DNA of 64,000 nucleotides from Candidatus Levyibacteriota bacterium (GCA_038254115.1 JBBSGK010000004.1:4227-68226); one strand, 5' to 3'; counted from the first letter of the stretch, positions 1 through 6,041 are shown. A program made the numbers and translations. Notes: a model not told the origin generated them from the letters alone.

Positions 1-1183
1 GATCAAATCCCTTCATGCCATATGTTCCGTTTAGACTGATGTTGTAGGCTATATTCCATGTAAAATCACTAAGTTTGGGATCTATTAAATCAAACGGTAC
101 GATAAAGAACCCTTCGTTAACAGATGGACTATTATATTGAATACGGATTTTTTTATATACATTCCCATTGCCTTCAATAATAACGCGGGACGGATGTCCC
201 TTCCATCCGACCAGCATATGTGATTCAAATGTTTGGTAAGTGGCCGAAACCGGATCAAGTGCATGATCTGCTTTTCCCTGAATAAATAAGGATTGAAATG
301 CAGGATTTTCAATAGTTACCACGGGAGCCGATTGTGCTGAAGCGGTAATGATCTGACCTGAAGCCTTATATGCAATTTCAGTTGCCCGTGAATGCTGCTC
401 TTTCCCAAACCATTGTCCGGGATCGGTAAATTTATCAACAACAAATTCATAGGATTGGGCACCGGTGCCTATCAACTGATAACTCAACGCCAAGTCGTAA
501 TCACTGCGCCAAAATTTGGCATTTAATTGTACAGATAGGGGACCTGAGTAGGTGGTTGAGAGCGTTGTCGGAGTTAGATGTTTATCTGATTGTGATTGCC
601 TGGTAAAATTGCTTGCTTCTAGAACAGTTCCGTTGTTAACTGCATTAAATCCTACTTTTGTAACGTGTTCCATATTGTCATATCGATAGTCCTGTTGAAG
701 GTAGTTATCGGGAGTATCCGATGCAATCACACGTTGACCAGGATCCAAGTCTTCAAATACCCCTTGCTCGCGCCGCAGAAATAATTGCGTTCCTTGATAG
801 GAAGAAGACGGAATTTGAGAACTTATTAAACCATTTATAATGTGTTTAATTGATTCTAGCCTAACGATTGGGGAGGATTTTTCTTCTTCAGCAAACGCCA
901 AAATTGTCCGCGCGCTATCCTCAGTAAAGTGGATAGCAGGAAGGTTATCGGAATTAATTCCGTCCAGGGAAAATGTCAGCAAGTTATACCGGTTATCAAT
1001 TAAATTTTCCATATAATTTCCGGCATTCCAGCTGAGTTGGGTTGCAGTGGAGATTGGGGTTTGTGCTTTTGTCCTGAAATCATTTTGCTTTCTGAGAAAG
1101 AGAATCGTAATTGGTACTGCTAACAAGAGGAATATTAAGAATAACAGGGTAATATATTTTTTTTGACCCAAAAACCGCCGCAT
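1..1183 (-). CDS. hypothetical secreted/membrane-anchored protein, partial (runs off the window start; N-terminus at 1183)
   Basis: Minus-strand frame reads open from the ATG (reverse complement of 1181-1183) to position 1 with no stop. The ORF track omits it because there is no stop inside the window. The N-terminus MRRFLGQKKYITLLFLIFLLLAVPITILFL looks like a signal anchor. It sits downstream of rplL where rpoB is normally found. Confidence 0.6.
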   Translation of the reverse strand, partial: MRRFLGQKKYITLLFLIFLLLAVPITILFLRKQNDFRTKAQTPISTATQLSWNAGNYMENLIDNRYNLLTFSLDGINSDNLPAIHFTEDSARTILAFAEEEKSSPIVRLESIKHIINGLISSQIPSSSYQGTQLFLRREQGVFEDLDPGQRVIASDTPDNYLQQDYRYDNMEHVTKVGFNAVNNGTVLEASNFTRQSQSDKHLTPTTLSTTYSGPLSVQLNAKFWRSDYDLALSYQLIGTGAQSYEFVVDKFTDPGQWFGKEQHSRATEIAYKASGQIITASAQSAPVVTIENPAFQSLFIQGKADHALDPVSATYQTFESHMLVGWKGHPSRVIIEGNGNVYKKIRIQYNSPSVNEGFFIVPFDLIDPKLSDFTWNIAYNISLNGTYGMKGFD

Positions 1184-2260: not shown

Positions 2261-2426
2261 ATATTCCTCCGTAGGATTTATTCCGAATTTTTCGAAACCT
2301 ACTTCTTAGGACTATTAAATTATAGCAGGGGAGGGGAGGATTGTAAATAGCCATTAAAACTGATAACGAATAAGAACTACTGATAAGAGTTTATCCAAAC
2401 AGGTATAAGTTATTGGTAAGAAGACA

Positions 2427-5318
2427 TTATGGTGCAACTTCTCTTGAGATTGTTTCATCCCGCATCAGAAAAGTTGGGGCATTAAGTATAAAATCAAGTC
2501 TCGGACTGATTGTGAGAGATGGGGTATTTGAGTTAGCGCCGCAAAGACTGCGGTTATTTATTAGCTTTCCATTCCCACCATTACCGGCAGCATTCATGAT
2601 AATTGATCCTTCTACATTTAACATTTTATCAGGAGCCGGGCAATTGTTTTTTCCCTCAAGAACAAAATTCTTATCAGTACTGTAAAATCCTTGTAATTGG
2701 CCTGCGGGTTTGGGCAAAGAGTTGCTTGCGGCGCCTACCGATTTATCGATAACGATGTTCCCGCTTGATGAAAATAGAGCAGTCGAGCCGTTTGGAATTG
2801 TAATGTCGCCTTTAACCGTTAACTTTCCATTGATTAGGAATATATAATTTTGGGATACGGTTGTAGGATTAAAGCTTGTAATAGTTACATCGCTATTGGG
2901 CGGGGCAACATAAATTCCATGGGATAAGTTGCTTGGAAGAGCGCAGTTGGAAATGCCACCGCTGCAAACTGATGCAAGATCAATTGTGGTTAATTGTGCC
3001 CCGGATATCTTGTCGGTCAAACTCCCATAACTTGTATGCAAGCGGCCGGTAGATGAGAAGAATTCAGGATACGATGATCCTCCTACGACCCAATTTTTAC
3101 CGGATGACTGACCCGGGGAAAAATCCGGATTTCCATCTCCTGAAAAAATGACTCCAGGGGTTGATCCGATAGCGCTGTCACTCTCTGAGGCAGATGCGCC
3201 TGAGGGAACATTGTCCACAAATCCGCTATCAATCCGAAGGTCAAGATTATAGCCCTGTATCCAAGCAGTGGAGTTATTGAGGGCAAAATTGAGATTTATT
3301 ATATTTCCTGATGCATCACAACTGCCTCCGGTTGTTGGATTGGGAATAGGATTAACGCATCCCGAGCCGGCAGTTACAGAGAATGCTGCTGGTCCGTAAG
3401 GATATACATGGTAATTAGGCGGAACAGTATTGTACGTTATTGTGTAGGTCCCGGAAGGAACATTTGTAAAGGAATAACTGCCATCCGCGTTATTGGCTAC
3501 TGTTATTCCAGCGCTTGGAGAGATACTTATATTTGGTGGTGTTGCAGTATAGTTTAATTCGCCACGGTTACTCTGATTGTCTCCATTTGTATCAATAAAA
3601 ACCTTTCCGGAGATGCTGAAGAAAGCCGTATTTACAGTAGCTGTATTTACAGTAAATGACAGATTGTCGGTACTAGCATTGCAATTTGCGTCACCCGAAT
3701 AGTCTGCTGTAATTGTATGGGTTCCGGTAGTTAAGGATGAGGTAGAGATGTTTGCTGTTTGCGCGGCAAGAGCTACGGGATTACCCATTGATATGCCCCC
3801 GTCATTGAATTGAATTGTGCCTGTCGGAACACAGGCACCGCTTCCTGCAACTGAAGCTGAAAAAGTAACTGATGTTCCTGAATTAGATGGGCTTACCGGG
3901 GAAGAGGTAAGAGTGGTAGTGGTTGCTGCTAATGAACCTGTTGTAGGTGTTGCGGTTGGAGGAGTAGTTGGAACCGTGGTTGGGGTAGGTGTTGCGGTTG
4001 GAGGAGTAGTTGGAACCGTGGTTGGGGTAGGTGTTGGTGGTTGTATTTGTGGAACTGAGCAGCCTGCTCCTCCGCGTCCTCCGGCACCGCCTGTGTTACC
4101 TGAGGGCGGTTGGCCGGCTTGTCCTGCATGTAATCCGTTACAGCCAGAACCTCCAGCTCCTCCGACACGGCCAGGTCCAACTTTATCATTGTAAATATCG
4201 CCATAACCCCCGGCTCCATAACCGGCAATTGGTCCGGCGGGCGAGGCAGTCCCAGTGGCACCGGTGCCTCCTTGACCTCCATCTCCTCCCTTGCCTCCGT
4301 CGCCACCGGCTGTAGTTCCAAGTCCATTTCCGCCATTGCCACCTAACCCTCCTATACCTCCCTTACCATTGAAGCTCTCAGCAATACTAAACGCTCCGTA
4401 TCCTGCAATTGGACCTGTAAATTTTGCGTCTCCATGGGCATTGTTTCCTCCTCTTCCTCCGTTGCCTCCATTTCCACCATTTCCTCCAGATTGGATCCCG
4501 TTTGAGTCACCTCCATTGCCTCCATCGCCTCCAAAGCCCCCCTCTCCATTATATAAAATTCCAAAACTACCTGCCCCATATCCGACTCCTCCAGGGGATG
4601 AGGCAGTTCCGTGGGCTCCCGTGCCTCCTTGACCTCCATCTCCTCCCTTGCCGCCATTCCGTCCTAATTTTCCATTATTTCCATTCCCTCCCCATCCTCC
4701 GGCACCGTTATATACTTGAGCAAAACTTGAAGCACCATAACCGACAGGTGTTACGGATTTAGCATCGCCCGAAGCATTATCCCCACCACGTCCACCAACT
4801 CCTCCATCTCCACCTGCGCTAATTGCGGTTGCATTTCCTCCCTTGCCTCCATTTCCACCCTTACCGTTGTATACCTGAGTCGAGAAAGCTGAACTGCTAC
4901 TTTTGGCATTACCGGAAGCATAATTACCTCCAGTTCCTCCGCTTCCTCCTGGCCCGGCAACACCATTGCTTGTTATATTATCGCCTCCATTTCCGCCTTT
5001 TCCTCCGAGGCCGTTATATACAGTTGTGAGGGTTGTGGCATCACTTTTAGCATTGGCGACTCCGCCTCCTCCTCCGCCCCCACCGGCGCCGAGTGCTTGG
5101 TTGAGAGTTAATAATCCACTTCCACCATTTCCTCCATTTGCTGCCCCTCCTGCTCCCCCTCCTAAGCCTTGAGAATTATTGCAACCTTTTTGTCCTGGTG
5201 CGCCGGAAGCGCCACCTGTACCACAGCCAACTTGGGCAGATAAGGTGGGTACGAGTATAAGAAAAGTGAAGATAAACAGCGTGAGAATAGAGTTATTGAG
5301 GAATGGTTTTCTTGCCAT
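2427..5318 (-). CDS. glycine-rich repeat cell-surface protein (signal peptide, Gly-rich repeats, Pro/Thr linker, Ig-like/Cna-B-like domains, C-terminal domain)
   Basis: 963 aa. The signal peptide is MARKPFLNNSILTLFIFTFLILVPTLSAQ. It is followed by about 390 aa of roughly 40-aa repeats of the form YNGxGGxGGxGG...DAKS. Then comes a PTPTTVPTTPPTAT x2 linker, then beta-sandwich-like segments such as GKVFIDTNGDNQ...SGTYTITY. The gene lies between rplA and rplJ. Confidence 0.85.
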   Translation of the reverse strand: MARKPFLNNSILTLFIFTFLILVPTLSAQVGCGTGGASGAPGQKGCNNSQGLGGGAGGAANGGNGGSGLLTLNQALGAGGGGGGGGVANAKSDATTLTTVYNGLGGKGGNGGDNITSNGVAGPGGSGGTGGNYASGNAKSSSSAFSTQVYNGKGGNGGKGGNATAISAGGDGGVGGRGGDNASGDAKSVTPVGYGASSFAQVYNGAGGWGGNGNNGKLGRNGGKGGDGGQGGTGAHGTASSPGGVGYGAGSFGILYNGEGGFGGDGGNGGDSNGIQSGGNGGNGGNGGRGGNNAHGDAKFTGPIAGYGAFSIAESFNGKGGIGGLGGNGGNGLGTTAGGDGGKGGDGGQGGTGATGTASPAGPIAGYGAGGYGDIYNDKVGPGRVGGAGGSGCNGLHAGQAGQPPSGNTGGAGGRGGAGCSVPQIQPPTPTPTTVPTTPPTATPTPTTVPTTPPTATPTTGSLAATTTTLTSSPVSPSNSGTSVTFSASVAGSGACVPTGTIQFNDGGISMGNPVALAAQTANISTSSLTTGTHTITADYSGDANCNASTDNLSFTVNTATVNTAFFSISGKVFIDTNGDNQSNRGELNYTATPPNISISPSAGITVANNADGSYSFTNVPSGTYTITYNTVPPNYHVYPYGPAAFSVTAGSGCVNPIPNPTTGGSCDASGNIINLNFALNNSTAWIQGYNLDLRIDSGFVDNVPSGASASESDSAIGSTPGVIFSGDGNPDFSPGQSSGKNWVVGGSSYPEFFSSTGRLHTSYGSLTDKISGAQLTTIDLASVCSGGISNCALPSNLSHGIYVAPPNSDVTITSFNPTTVSQNYIFLINGKLTVKGDITIPNGSTALFSSSGNIVIDKSVGAASNSLPKPAGQLQGFYSTDKNFVLEGKNNCPAPDKMLNVEGSIIMNAAGNGGNGKLINNRSLCGANSNTPSLTISPRLDFILNAPTFLMRDETISREVAP
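3947..4040. repeat. 42-bp tandem repeat (2.3 copies) inside the Gly-rich protein gene, encoding the PT-rich linker
   Basis: GTGTTGCGGTTGGAGGAGTAGTTGGAACCGTGGTTGGGGTAG occurs at 3947-3988 and again at 3989-4030, followed by a partial third copy. Confidence 0.8.
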
Positions 5319-5497
5319 AATTTAACTATACAAAGGGGGGAACTAACTTGTCAACGAAGAGCGTAAAGGATGTTAGGGAAATAAAATTTATAATTATTTA
5401 ATAACTTCTCTTCTAAATCCTAGTGTTGGAAGGATAATGAAAAAATACAGTATAGGATTATAAAAGATGATAAAGATTGAGAATTAGAAACGAAGAA

Positions 5498-5992
5498 TTA
5501 CTTAAGGTCGGCACAAACAATATCTGTTTTAAGATCCTGCGCAGATTTATGCACCCTTACAGCTAGTGGAAATTGTTTTTTAAAATCAGCCAGCGTACCC
5601 GTTATATAGTTTGCCGTTTTTCCATTTACAACAGGGGAGAGAGAATATTTTGCATTTTCCGGTTTTTCACAGCTTCCTTCATAAACATATGCCGGATGCG
5701 AAGCCTTATCAGTCGTATTATTTAGATCAACACCTATAAATACTTTTCCATTAACCTCATTGAATGTTACAATTCCGGAGCTTCCTGAATTGTTTTTTTC
5801 CGAAAGATTAGCCTCCATACTGGCTACAATAGGTCCCTGTTTTAAATCAGGAGTAAGATTTGCGGTAGGGGGAGAGGGGTTGGATTGAACGGGCCGGTTA
5901 TTTGTATTTTTCTTGGGTAGGAAAATTATAGATGCTATCATCAGGACAACGAAAATAGAACCAAAAATAAGTATTTTTTTGTTCATGGTCAT
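5498..5992 (-). CDS. hypothetical membrane-anchored/secreted protein
   Basis: 164 aa. N-terminal TM helix IFGSIFVVLMIASIIFL, Pro-rich spacer, and a C-terminal domain with two Cys. It sits between rplA and the Gly-rich protein gene inside the ribosomal cluster. Confidence 0.6.
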   Translation of the reverse strand: MTMNKKILIFGSIFVVLMIASIIFLPKKNTNNRPVQSNPSPPTANLTPDLKQGPIVASMEANLSEKNNSGSSGIVTFNEVNGKVFIGVDLNNTTDKASHPAYVYEGSCEKPENAKYSLSPVVNGKTANYITGTLADFKKQFPLAVRVHKSAQDLKTDIVCADLK

Positions 5993-6041
5993 ATTAAATT
6001 TACCAATTGTTGCCGGAAATTGTCAAGCTGACCAATGTAGA

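Follow-up and report, generated by a model that had tools for sequence, protein, structure and literature searches.

Gene Structure and Genomic Context

The window analyzed here, i.e., the whole stretch of 64,000 nucleotides from a Candidatus Levyibacteriota bacterium (GCA_038254115.1, JBBSGK010000004.1:4227-68226), a tiny and uncultured member of the Patescibacteria/CPR, harbors a gene encoding a modular protein with a glycine-rich region, whose features are listed in Table 1. The ORF scan disclosed a single, intact ORF of 963 aa on the minus strand, and the gene is real; on the plus strand, the same stretch shows Pro-rich ORFs that merely mirror the GGN codons in antisense. The order of the domains (signal peptide, glycine-rich array, Pro/Thr-rich linker, Ig-like/prealbumin-like β-sandwiches, and C-terminal domain) is the one proposed in a preliminary description of this DNA, which was based on the sequence only.

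Table 1. Position of the features identified in the gene and in its surroundings.
Feature	Residues	Position (nt)	Strand	Remarks or basis
rplJ promoter-like element		2319..2347	minus	TTTACA-17-TATAAT plus a TG; lies past the stop codon of the gene
Whole gene	1-963	2427..5318	minus	963 codons and a stop codon (2427-2429)
Family-defining C-terminal β-solenoid domain	671-963	2430..3308	minus	profile, AF2, Foldseek
SdrD-B-like/prealbumin-like β-sandwich (C654, C667)	~565-670	3309..3626	minus	Pfam, AF2, Foldseek
Big_3_5 bacterial Ig-like domain (C496, C546)	471-558	3645..3908	minus	Pfam match
Pro/Thr-rich (PT) linker (PTPTTVPTTPPTAT x2)	422-470	3909..4055	minus	sequence
42-bp tandem, 2.2 copies		3943..4036		TRF and repeat search; encodes the duplicated PT unit
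Glycine-rich module	29-421	4056..5234	minus	40% Gly, Cys-bounded caps, six repeats
Sec-type signal-peptide-like N-terminus	1-28	5235..5318	minus	sequence inspection
Promoter-like element		5325..5354	minus	TTGACA-18 nt-TATAGT, ends 6 nt before ATG; motif scan and conservation
orf164, conserved upstream neighbor		5498..5992	minus	N-terminal membrane anchor and ~110-aa domain

The preliminary description had considered that the repeat region might have been collapsed during assembly. This is unlikely, since the DNA repeats within the glycine-rich region do not exceed 66 nt and are only 61-90% identical, the ORF is intact, and three independent assemblies share the same architecture. The homologues P0002 and P0003, which have this architecture, show 45-52% identity, depending on the measure. 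More generally, that the gene might be an assembly artefact or a pseudogene appears extremely improbable: even though GGN-rich DNA is error-prone and, in the long-read chromosome OY970292.1, the orthologue is broken across at least five frames, the 2.9-kb ORF of the window is uninterrupted, as are those carrying the same architecture in the independently assembled P0002, P0003, and L008, and the internal repeats have neither the length nor the identity that a collapse would require. A protein-guided scan of metagenomes recovered only relatives with an identity of 45% or less.

In its closest orthologues the gene is likewise located between rplA and rplJ, and the arrangement rplA-orf164-gene-rplJ is found in four genomes. 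The element TTGACA-18-TAtAGT-6 nt-start is kept across three orthologues sharing about 45-52% of protein identity; in the orthologous loci L001 and L002 the -35, the 18-nt spacing, the -10, and the TAAAxT-start arrangement are maintained, and the spacer has diverged. The absence of a Shine-Dalgarno sequence before the start codon and the position of the promoter abutting the ATG lead to the prediction of a leaderless mRNA. Taken together, promoter-like sites are no more numerous than in shuffled sequences; it is their position and conservation that argue for a possible function. The separate rplJ promoter-like element, located downstream of the stop codon, suggests that rplJL could do without read-through from the gene of the glycine-rich protein; this element is also conserved in L001 and L002.

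As for the upstream neighbor, orf164 accompanies the gene at each of the four syntenic loci and matched nothing in Pfam, NCBIfam, or PDB; a functional link between the two is a conjecture. Small membrane-anchored ORFs recur upstream, and the idea of a conserved partner gene was discarded, these ORFs not being homologous (hhalign probability <10%).

N-Terminus and Export

The first residues exhibit the usual layout of a signal peptide, as previously proposed: on inspection of the sequence, MARK is followed by a 13-residue hydrophobic core and then by TLSA|QV, with a Leu at position -3 of the predicted cleavage site, which is less than ideal. The protein contains 12 Cys, i.e., six pairs, each of which lies inside one module. 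An N-terminal hydrophobic region is present in 117 of the 134 full-length family members (in 61 it is followed by a strict AxA motif), and these signal regions, together with the six intramodular Cys pairs and the conserved Cys of the C-terminal domain, suggest that the protein is exported.

Neither an LPXTG motif nor a hydrophobic C-terminal stretch or transmembrane segment is present at the end of the protein (...FLMRDETISREVAP), and the Pfam and NCBIfam scans revealed no SLH, LysM, or CW_binding domain. For the whole protein, NCBIfam gave no match and the search against PDB sequences gave nothing useful. The N-terminus does not contain a prepilin-type motif (G|FTLIE-like).

The Linker and Its Tandem Repeat

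The duplicated unit of the linker is encoded by a perfect 42-bp tandem, as the preliminary description had reported: TRF placed it with 100% identity and a score of 188, and the repeat search found the units 3943-3984 and 3985-4026 to be identical (100%). In P0002 and P0003 the linker is missing at the corresponding position. The proposal that slippage might vary the length of the presumed stalk is weakly supported at best, as this 2.2-copy 42-mer is the only perfect repeat in the gene, homopolymers in the gene and in the promoter do not exceed 6 nt, and no strain-level variants were found in metagenome contigs by searching for the exact 42-mer (itself absent from them) and by the protein-guided scan. 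Phase variation at homopolymers was ruled out, the longest runs being two 6-nt C tracts, one in the coding sequence and one in the promoter spacer.

The β-Sandwich Domains and the C-Terminal Solenoid

The HMM searches confirmed the two β-sandwich domains to a different extent. Big_3_5 (PF16640) was matched above its gathering score (E = 2.8e-18, 66.7 bits vs. a cutoff of 35.5), whereas SdrD_B (PF17210) reached 24.9 bits, below its cutoff of 29.7 (E = 2.5e-5); the latter domain is above the cutoff in the homologues P0014 and P0054 and occurs in 41 of the 61 other members of the family. The AF2 model of the SdrD-B-like sandwich has a pLDDT of 79-93 over most of residues 565-650, and about 70 near residue 660; for residues 565-670, Foldseek retrieved SdrD (10ps, 4jdz; prob 1.00) and Gram-positive pilins (prob 0.99). 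The sub-threshold match and these structural similarities make the earlier label "Cna-B-like" a reasonable one. This sandwich is part of the constant C-terminal unit of the family.

The C-terminal domain, initially estimated at approximately 300 aa, consists of ~293 aa. The structure prediction of the C-terminal domains that had been suggested gave a confident model, with a pLDDT mostly of 80-98 over residues ~560-960, dropping to 36-63 at ~721-760 and in the last ~14 residues. The modelled domain would be a β-helix with a flanking α-helix (residues 764-774 of the model), and its best folds are those of ice-binding proteins (4nu2, prob 0.97; 5b5h, TMt 0.47) and of ComZ (6qvi); these matches are modest (prob 0.90-0.97, TM 0.34-0.47, all with E >= 0.078). 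It is known that ComZ and FfIBP share a triangular β-helix (PMC6561018). At the sequence level, only weak matches were detected among eight C-terminal domains (DUF7305 in 3/8; Beta_helix in 1/8, sub-threshold). PF11999 (Ice_binding/DUF3494) was not matched in Pfam by the query domain even at E <= 10, and weakly by only 2 of 39 family members (best E 0.0039). The PDB sequence search with the profile of the domain gave nothing useful; no significant match emerged from a viral fold library, where a DUF3494 protein was among the top viral matches. No literature was found on DUF7305, nor on DUF3494 in CPR.

A family profile built from the eight C-terminal domains retrieved 1,936 representatives (counted at 50% identity) at E <= 1e-3, of which 662 reached E <= 1e-30; the protein of the window matched it over profile positions 1-288 with 456 bits (E = 3.6e-132). 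The family loci with an informative label belong to MAGs of Levybacteria/Levyibacteriota or of the "Patescibacteria group"; the other labels (Gammaproteobacteria, Saccharimonadales, and Lysobacterales) are regarded here as errors of automatic labelling. The domain is, in 148 of 154 members, located at the C-terminus of the protein, with a family tail [S/W]-Q-E-V-A-P (..SREVAP in the protein of the window), while the other 6 carry further domains beyond it, which gave no clue to an anchor. The window protein contains two conserved Cys pairs in this domain (C785/C792 and C893/C926), which are probably disulfides; these four Cys show little or no variation across the family, and the protein of the window also has the E960/P963 tail. 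The conserved polar residues are D693, R695, D897, R923, R940, D942, E960, and several Asn.

The part of the protein preceding this constant unit differs from member to member. In 61 members, VWA is the most common recognizable ligand-binding module (7/61), accompanied by CBM_4_9 (3), Laminin_G_3 (2), F5/8C (2), and CBM96 (1); another set of family members carries CBM96, Ricin-B, F5/8C, and VWA modules. The VWA, CBM, lectin, and F5/8C modules are all located N-terminal to the constant unit. These proteins form a large, un-named family, in which a constant chassis (SdrD-B-like domain plus solenoid) would carry a swappable N-terminal cargo.

The Glycine-Rich Module

In the protein of the window, the cargo would comprise the PT linker, the Big_3_5 domain, and, ahead of them, a glycine-rich module of 393 aa. 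The preliminary description had correctly recognized a region of about 390 aa with YNG..GGxGGxGG..GDAKS..GYGA.SF units; its estimates of a Gly content above 50% and of a period of about 40 aa have to be revised, since Gly accounts for 40% of the residues (47% at most within any 100-aa window) and the six repeats, starting at residues 100, 149, 202, 255, 315, and 375, are 47-60 aa long. A typical repeat reads [V/L/I]-Y-N-G-x-(GGX)2-4, loop, (GGX)3-4, A-x-G-D-A-K-S.., G-Y-G-A-x-S-F; most repeats contain two GGX runs, and the first and the last are degenerate. Compared with shuffled sequences, the Gly-Gly spacing is enriched at lag 3 (z = 8.7) and at lag 6 (z = 4.0), and aromatic and hydrophobic positions recur at regular intervals. 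The X of GGX is N, D, K, A, or R, with 4% Pro and no Asp-hydrophobic register; RTX (GGxGxDxUx) and collagen (G-X-Y with Pro) repeats were ruled out on the basis of the GGX units, the Pro content, and the lack of a Pfam match. The module is delimited by an N-cap (C32..C46) and a C-cap (C393..C420), and these Cys-bounded caps are kept in all the six carriers (the protein of the window, P0002, P0003, P0031, P0069, and L008), whereas the length of the module varies widely among homologues, from roughly 150 to 620 aa.

No family was matched in Pfam by the module, nor any PDB sequence. The term "PGRS-like" applied to it beforehand holds for the composition and the GGX periodicity, and does not extend to a PE domain or to a sequence or profile link with PE_PGRS proteins. 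The AF2 model has a pLDDT of about 34 over residues 25-404, a value that a disordered region would also give; since the alignment contained only about five homologues over this stretch, AF2 was effectively blind there. The GGX runs, of 8-14 residues, match in length the helices of glycine PPII bundles already described (PMC13243192), and similar GGX sequences of PE_PGRS proteins form ordered PPII bundles in AlphaFold and molecular dynamics models.

The array had been interpreted as a highly flexible stalk presenting adhesin-like domains. This view is not supported, given the constancy of the C-terminal unit, the occurrence of VWA, CBM, lectin, or Ig modules in paralogues at the position of the glycine-rich one, and the conserved Cys pairs bounding it; the same three observations argue for a distinct, variable head or cargo module rather than a spacer or a stalk. 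Such a module might be folded and might bind something.

Proposed Organization and Alternative Explanations

The analysis established the anatomy of the protein, the existence of the family and the taxa in which it occurs, the type of fold adopted by the C-terminal half, the synteny, and the conservation of the promoter. Beyond these observations, the interpretation that we somewhat favor is that of a Sec-exported modular surface protein, with the C-terminal solenoid as a chassis and the glycine-rich module as a distal cargo. The signal peptide would be cleaved; as for the attached end, we infer that the conserved solenoid might attach the protein to some conserved structure of the envelope, serving either as an assembly module or as an anchor of the non-covalent kind. 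The sandwich domains and the linker would act as a spacer, and the glycine-rich module as the exposed distal element, probably a compact scaffold of the polyglycine-II type with variable binding loops and not a floppy stalk. The gene, which occupies a conserved site between rplA and rplJ, would be transcribed from a near-consensus promoter of its own, immediately before the ATG.

The same observations can be read differently. The glycine-rich region might be intrinsically disordered, with no defined fold, and serve as a spacer (elastic or entropic) or as a "brush" of low complexity, which would fit either topology; this is possible, if less probable than the modular reading. The low pLDDT, the lack of family or PDB sequence matches, and the very variable length are in line with it, while the blindness of AF2 in a region aligned with so few homologues, the strict GGX register (z = 8.7), the Cys-bounded caps conserved at both ends, the recurrence of V-Y-N-G and G-Y-G-A-x-S-F, and the ordered models of similar sequences in PE_PGRS proteins speak against it. 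The topology might even be reversed, with an uncleaved signal anchor attaching the N-terminus, the glycine-rich region as a flexible stalk, and the Ig-like and solenoid domains as a distal adhesin head. Such an arrangement seems unlikely, although the structural analogues of the C-terminal domain (ice-binding proteins and the pilus-tip solenoid of ComZ) act as distal binding modules, which by analogy would weigh against the solenoid as an anchor, as do the absence of a recognized anchoring motif and the further domains following it in 6/154 members; it would also agree with the structureless AF2 model of the glycine-rich region and with the Leu at -3. Nevertheless, a constant C-terminal unit with a swapped N-terminal part (VWA, CBM, lectin) is the usual signature of an anchor and a head, respectively, many members have textbook AxA cleavage sites, and the glycine-rich module combines conserved Cys caps with regular hydrophobic positions.

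It is rather improbable that the solenoid is catalytic, i.e., a β-helix of the polysaccharide lyase/hydrolase type targeted to its substrate by the N-terminal modules, the glycine-rich one included, as happens in CBM-carrying carbohydrate-active enzymes. β-helices are common enzyme scaffolds, one of the eight domains has a sub-threshold Beta_helix match, the polar residues mentioned above are conserved, and the paralogues contain CBM_4_9, CBM96, Ricin-B, and F5/8C; yet no enzyme family was matched in Pfam, NCBIfam, or PDB sequences, the best folds are the non-enzymatic solenoids of IBP and ComZ, and VWA, the commonest ligand-binding module, is typical of adhesins, not of CAZymes. By analogy with ComZ, the protein might be a tip adhesin associated with a type IV pilus, a proposal to which we give very little credit: besides the similarity to the ComZ solenoid, one family member is followed by PilX-like and PilM/N/O genes and another by five prepilin genes, but the N-terminus is of the Sec type rather than the prepilin type, and no pilus genes flank the syntenic rplA-rplJ loci. 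Since pilus genes adjoin only 2 of 32 family loci, a general link with type IV pili was excluded.

A bolder version of the modular reading, which we consider improbable, is that the glycine-rich module represents a new, disulfide-capped bundle of the polyglycine-II type, acting as the head by which an abundant surface fibril of Levybacteria binds a host or a ligand. The solenoid would be its anchoring or assembly domain, hitherto unrecognized and common to some two thousand sequence clusters of patescibacterial surface proteins, and a consensus leaderless promoter at a fixed place in a ribosomal-protein cluster would tie expression to growth. If so, this glycine-headed fibril would be a principal attachment organelle of Levybacteria episymbionts.

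The way in which CPR/Patescibacteria attach to hosts or surfaces is largely unexplained, and most of their surface proteins lack an annotation. The gene analyzed here leads to a very large, un-named family, whose constant solenoid and exchangeable binding modules make it an obvious candidate for the set of proteins by which Levybacteria attach. If the glycine-rich module is a folded PPII-type bundle, a rare architecture would be extended to a new bacterial lineage and context; if not, the protein would be a modular surface protein of the ordinary kind, one segment of which is of low complexity.

Comparison with Known Systems

The signal peptide, the putative N-terminal ligand-binding region, the B-type sandwich spacers, and the predicted surface display recall S. 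aureus SdrD and the other MSCRAMMs of Gram-positive bacteria, as well as the Cna-B/SdrD-B pilins; the Foldseek matches of the protein include SdrD A2-A3-B1-B2, UafA, CppA, and GBS52. Unlike the Sdr family, the protein of the window has no LPXTG/sortase signal, no C-terminal transmembrane segment, and no SD repeats, its SdrD_B score lies below the Pfam cutoff, and its C-terminus is a β-solenoid of ~290 aa. This solenoid may have a β-helix with a flanking α-helix in common with its best structural matches, the DUF3494/PF11999 proteins (FfIBP, 4NU2) and ComZ of the Thermus competence pilus (6QVI), but the conserved motifs and Cys pairs of the family are its own, and it has no pilin domain.

In pneumococcal choline-binding proteins, a conserved C-terminal solenoid anchors the protein non-covalently to the wall. 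As in that system, a constant C-terminal solenoid is combined with diverse N-terminal modules across paralogues; the solenoid is, however, of another type, no CW_binding repeat is found in the protein of the window, and a comparable anchoring in Levybacteria is putative.

With the polyglycine/PPII bundles (PE_PGRS, snow-flea antifreeze protein, phage S16 gp38, ALK/LTK) the glycine-rich module shares GGX runs of 8-14 residues and short loops, and its Cys-bounded ends presumably parallel the disulfide stapling of the snow-flea protein. The module differs from these bundles in the non-glycine G-D-A-K-S...G-Y-G-A-x-S-F segment that most repeats add, and in that no PPII bundle was confidently modelled by AF2. 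As regards PE_PGRS proteins, the module does have GGX runs and a lag-3 periodicity; however, its unit is a composite repeat of 47-60 aa, the protein contains neither a PE domain (Pfam, E <= 1) nor an ESX signal, and a sequence relationship could not be detected. In phage S16 gp38, a glycine scaffold presents receptor-binding loops at the distal tip, a position that matches the one proposed for the glycine-rich module as cargo.

Architecture and integrity of the protein

The target gene encodes a genuine modular surface protein of Levybacterium, putatively exported, in which a predicted C-terminal IBP/ComZ-like beta-solenoid is combined with an unusual Cys-capped module of GGX repeats. The domain anatomy proposed in the preliminary description (signal-like N-terminus, Gly-rich part, PT linker, sandwiches and C-terminal domain) proved essentially right. 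The N-terminus consists of MARK, a hydrophobic core of 13 residues and TLSA|QV. The coordinates of the features are collected in the table below.

Positions of the features discussed (window coordinates unless a family locus, L001-L028, is named; residues are those of the window protein)
Feature	Position	Strand	Remark
Target gene	2427..5318	-	single ORF, 963 aa
Gly module	residues 29-421		
PT linker	residues 422-470		
Big_3_5 domain	residues 471-558		
SdrD-B-like sandwich	residues ~565-670		
C-domain	residues 671-963		last 293 residues
42-bp tandem	3943-4036		2.2 copies, 100% identity
Plus-strand ORFs	3817-4762	+	several, 94-125 aa, over the Gly-rich region; some Pro-rich
C6 run (coding strand)	5335-5340		within the target's promoter-like element, in the spacer between -35 and -10; not conserved in L001 or L002
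orf164	5498-5992	-	directly upstream of the target gene
rplJ leader motif	2261-2318	-	equivalents in L001 and L002
Ribosomal protein L1 gene	6042-6965	-	
rplA-rplJ gap	2261-6041		~3.8 kb; holds orf164 and the target gene
rplA-rplJ gap, L002	4213-8000		~8 kb; with CopG-antitoxin and HicA-toxin ORFs
rplA-rplJ gap, L003	2221-9086		
Orthologue, L003	4695-8951		
Family member, L008	8120-10876		long Tyr/Ser-rich repeats (YSAYGDYSNYS type) precede the Gly module
Tandem array, L011	5258-15008		four family genes, N-terminal parts differing
Tandem array, L017	8051-15942		two family genes, N-terminal parts differing
Family member, L027	6296-12219		1,822 aa, then five prepilin-type genes
Family member, L005	9391-12627		then a PilX-like gene and pilM/N/O-like genes

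The Gly module departs from the earlier figures of more than 50% Gly and a period of about 40 aa: its Gly content is 40%, with a maximum of 47% for any 100-aa window, and its six repeats, delimited by a recurring [Y/F]-N-[G/D] motif, measure 49, 53, 53, 60, 60 and 47 aa. In the usual repeat, [V/L/I]-Y-N-G-x-(GGX)2-4 leads through a short loop to (GGX)3-4, followed by A-x-G-D-A-K-S and then by G-Y-G-A-x-S-F; the first and the last repeat are degenerate. There are eleven GG-X-GG runs, each 8-14 residues long, and Gly-Gly spacing exceeds that of 2,000 shuffles at lag 3 (z=8.7) and lag 6 (z=4.0). The module is confined to a small sub-clade of six carriers (the window protein, its homologues P0002, P0003, P0031 and P0069, and L008), among which its length varies between roughly 150 and 620 aa; two modules seem to be present in P0002. 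In all six carriers the module closes with a Cys-bounded motif that is conserved, G-x-G-C-x-G...GG-x-GG-x-(G/P)-x-C, and in most of them it opens with a G-C-G...G-C cap.

A Big_3_5 domain follows the linker (66.7 bits vs a Pfam cutoff of 35.5). The SdrD_B/prealbumin-like match of the next sandwich remained below threshold (24.9 bits vs 29.7); in the predicted model, the latter region resembles SdrD B domains and Gram-positive pilins (Foldseek vs PDB, prob 0.99-1.00). Pfam at E<=10 yielded no match for either the Gly region or the C-domain, and NCBIfam and PDB sequence searches were empty. The twelve cysteines of the mature protein form six pairs (32/46, 393/420, 496/546, 654/667, 785/792 and 893/926), each within one module, a distribution that fits an extracytoplasmic protein folded module by module.

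The duplicated PTPTTVPTTPPTAT unit of the PT linker is encoded by the 42-bp tandem, whose perfection was confirmed. The slippage-prone stalk suggested earlier is weakly supported; the C6 run in the promoter spacer is probably too short for phase variation. A collapse of the repeat region during assembly, envisaged as a possible artefact, is unlikely: the DNA-level repeats within the Gly region do not exceed 66 nt and are 61-90% identical, and the homopolymers of the gene region are 6 nt at the longest. It is likewise unlikely that the gene is an artefact or a pseudogene, even though its L003 orthologue (= L023, in the complete long-read Levybacteria chromosome OY970292.1) is split over at least five reading frames, both in the Gly-rich part and beyond it; this splitting could mean that the copy is a pseudogene or that the GGN-rich DNA has given rise to indel errors. 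The plus-strand ORFs were rejected as genes, being antisense shadows of the coding sequence.

The C-terminal domain and its family

Word-indexed searches disclosed just a handful of relatives; an exhaustive search with a profile built from eight aligned C-domains retrieved 1,936 cluster representatives at E<=1e-3, 662 of them reaching E<=1e-30. The domain defines a large un-annotated family of which the window protein is a member, the sole NCBI name on a close homologue being "Ig-like domain repeat protein". In 148 of the 154 fetched members it ends no more than three residues from the C-terminus, with the family consensus [S/W]-Q-E-V-A-P; in the other six it is followed by PT linkers and further, mostly unannotated, domains. 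Across 133 aligned members, four Cys and a polar set including W686, Q688, D693, R695, S739, Y764, Y803, D897, N909, R923, R940, D942 and E960 are invariant or nearly so; a loop at residues 724-756 is conserved as well. According to genome scans, the family occurs in Candidatus Levybacteria/Levyibacteriota and other "Patescibacteria group" MAGs; the labels Gammaproteobacteria, Saccharimonadales and Lysobacterales on some records look like automatic mislabels.

The C-domain model obtained from the 8-sequence alignment was mediocre (pLDDT 59.5, core 80-93). The full-length model, based on a 39-row alignment that is deep across the C-terminal half, has a pLDDT mostly of 80-98 at residues ~560-960, with low values at ~721-760 and in the last ~14 residues. 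The fold matches of the C-domain are ice-binding proteins (4nu2, prob 0.97, TMt 0.44; 5b5h, prob 0.90, TMt 0.47) and ComZ, the Thermus competence pilin, with its beta-solenoid (6qvi, prob 0.93; all Foldseek vs PDB). A triangular beta-helix is common to ComZ and FfIBP (PMC6561018). The sequence echoes are weak: DUF7305 in three of the eight C-domains (best E 1.3e-3), Beta_helix in one of the eight and, in the C-domain or elsewhere, Ice_binding in two of 39 family members. On the basis of these fold matches and weak echoes, the C-domain is here assigned to the IBP/ComZ fold class as a predicted beta-solenoid, but is not counted among the members of PF11999.

Genomic setting

The target gene lies between rplA and rplJ, inside an otherwise canonical secE-nusG-rplK-rplA / rplJ-rplL cluster, and its three nearest orthologous loci, L001, L002 (= L007) and L003, share the order rplA-orf164-gene-rplJ; more distant members are located elsewhere, often beside glyA/thyA/folA-type housekeeping genes. 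In this clade, the gap between rplA and rplJ is a hot spot for insertions. In L002, a PDDEXK_3 gene is also found between nusG and rplK. Ribosomal protein L1 is typically about 230 aa long; in the window and in L001-L003 it has 303-332 aa, with a conserved Lys/Glu-rich N-terminal extension of ~90-110 aa before the L1 core.

Directly upstream of the start of the target gene, the element TTGACA-18 nt-TATAGT-TAAATT-ATG was found and no Shine-Dalgarno sequence; in L001 and L002 the -35 and -10 elements, the distance between them and the TAAAxT-start arrangement are retained, with a diverged spacer. Since this promoter-like element abuts the ATG, a leaderless transcript is predicted. It is position and conservation that carry the promoter argument, since the total number of promoter-like sites in the region does not exceed that of shuffles. 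For rplJ, a conserved promoter-like element and leader of its own lie 3' of the target's stop; 3' of that element, the leader contains a conserved hairpin-like motif, CCTAAGAA(A)GTAGG, which is possibly an L10-leader-type regulatory element and matched no Rfam family at gathering threshold.

In the product of orf164, a Pro-rich linker joins an N-terminal membrane anchor to a ~110-aa domain with a CADLK end; a promoter-like TTGACA-18-TAAATT abuts the start of the gene. The latter is conserved only beside the four syntenic orthologues and had no significant match in Pfam, NCBIfam or PDB. In L009, L011, L013, L017 (x2), L018, L019, L021, L027, L028 and the window, the family gene is directly preceded on the same strand by a small ORF (150-270 aa) whose product has a single TM helix, at its N-terminus. 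No mutual homology was detected among the three groups compared (hhalign probability <10%); these membrane-anchored ORFs fall into unrelated groups, and therefore a conserved partner gene was rejected. A general link with type IV pili was also discarded, pilus genes adjoining the family gene in only 2 of 32 loci.

Modular plan and proposed placement of the Gly module

The modules N-terminal to the constant unit (SdrD-B-like sandwich plus C-domain) were surveyed in 100 further members.

Modules in two sets of further family members (among the 25 families listed per set)
Module	Set of 61	Set of 39
SdrD_B	41	13
VWA	7	1
CBM_4_9	3	not among matches listed
Laminin_G_3	2	not among matches listed
F5/8 type C	2	1
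CBM96	1	2
Ricin-B	not among matches listed	1
Big_3_5	1	3
fn3	1	
Big_6	present	

A hydrophobic signal region was found in 117 of 134 full-length members, with a strict AxA motif in 61. This census and the signal regions point to a family plan in which a signal peptide is followed by variable binding cargo, an SdrD-B-like sandwich and the constant solenoid. The end of a bacterial surface protein that touches the cell is normally the constant one, whereas the variable one is turned outward; accordingly, the Gly module would occupy the distal cargo position and would not be a stalk.

Among the rival readings (ALTERNATIVES), the topology of the preliminary description, an N-anchored flexible stalk with a C-terminal head, draws on the fact that IBP and ComZ solenoids have distal roles and on the disorder-like AF2 output for the Gly region; it is nevertheless judged improbable, as it runs against the constant/variable logic of the family and the frequency of AxA sites within it. 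It is possible that the C-domain is a catalytic beta-helix targeted by the other modules, as the conservation of Asp, Arg and Asn residues in it and the presence of CBMs among its paralogues might suggest; however, an enzyme-family signal is absent and VWA cargo is atypical of CAZymes.

For the Gly module placed distally, the strict GGX register, the regular aromatic/hydrophobic positions and the Cys caps, taken together, argue for a folded glycine scaffold, to be regarded as a lead and not as a result; its pLDDT of ~34 is uninformative in both directions because only ~5 sequences covered the region. GGX runs of such length are known from polyglycine/polyproline-II bundles, namely those of the snow-flea antifreeze protein, of the phage S16 gp38 tip and of the ALK glycine-rich domain. 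For PE_PGRS proteins, too, a bundle of this kind has support from molecular dynamics and from AlphaFold models (Berisio & Delogu 2022, cited in PMC13243192). The term "PGRS-like" used earlier suits the composition of the window protein, whereas the PE domain is absent and homology to PE_PGRS proteins is undetectable in it; the likeness is a compositional analogy only.
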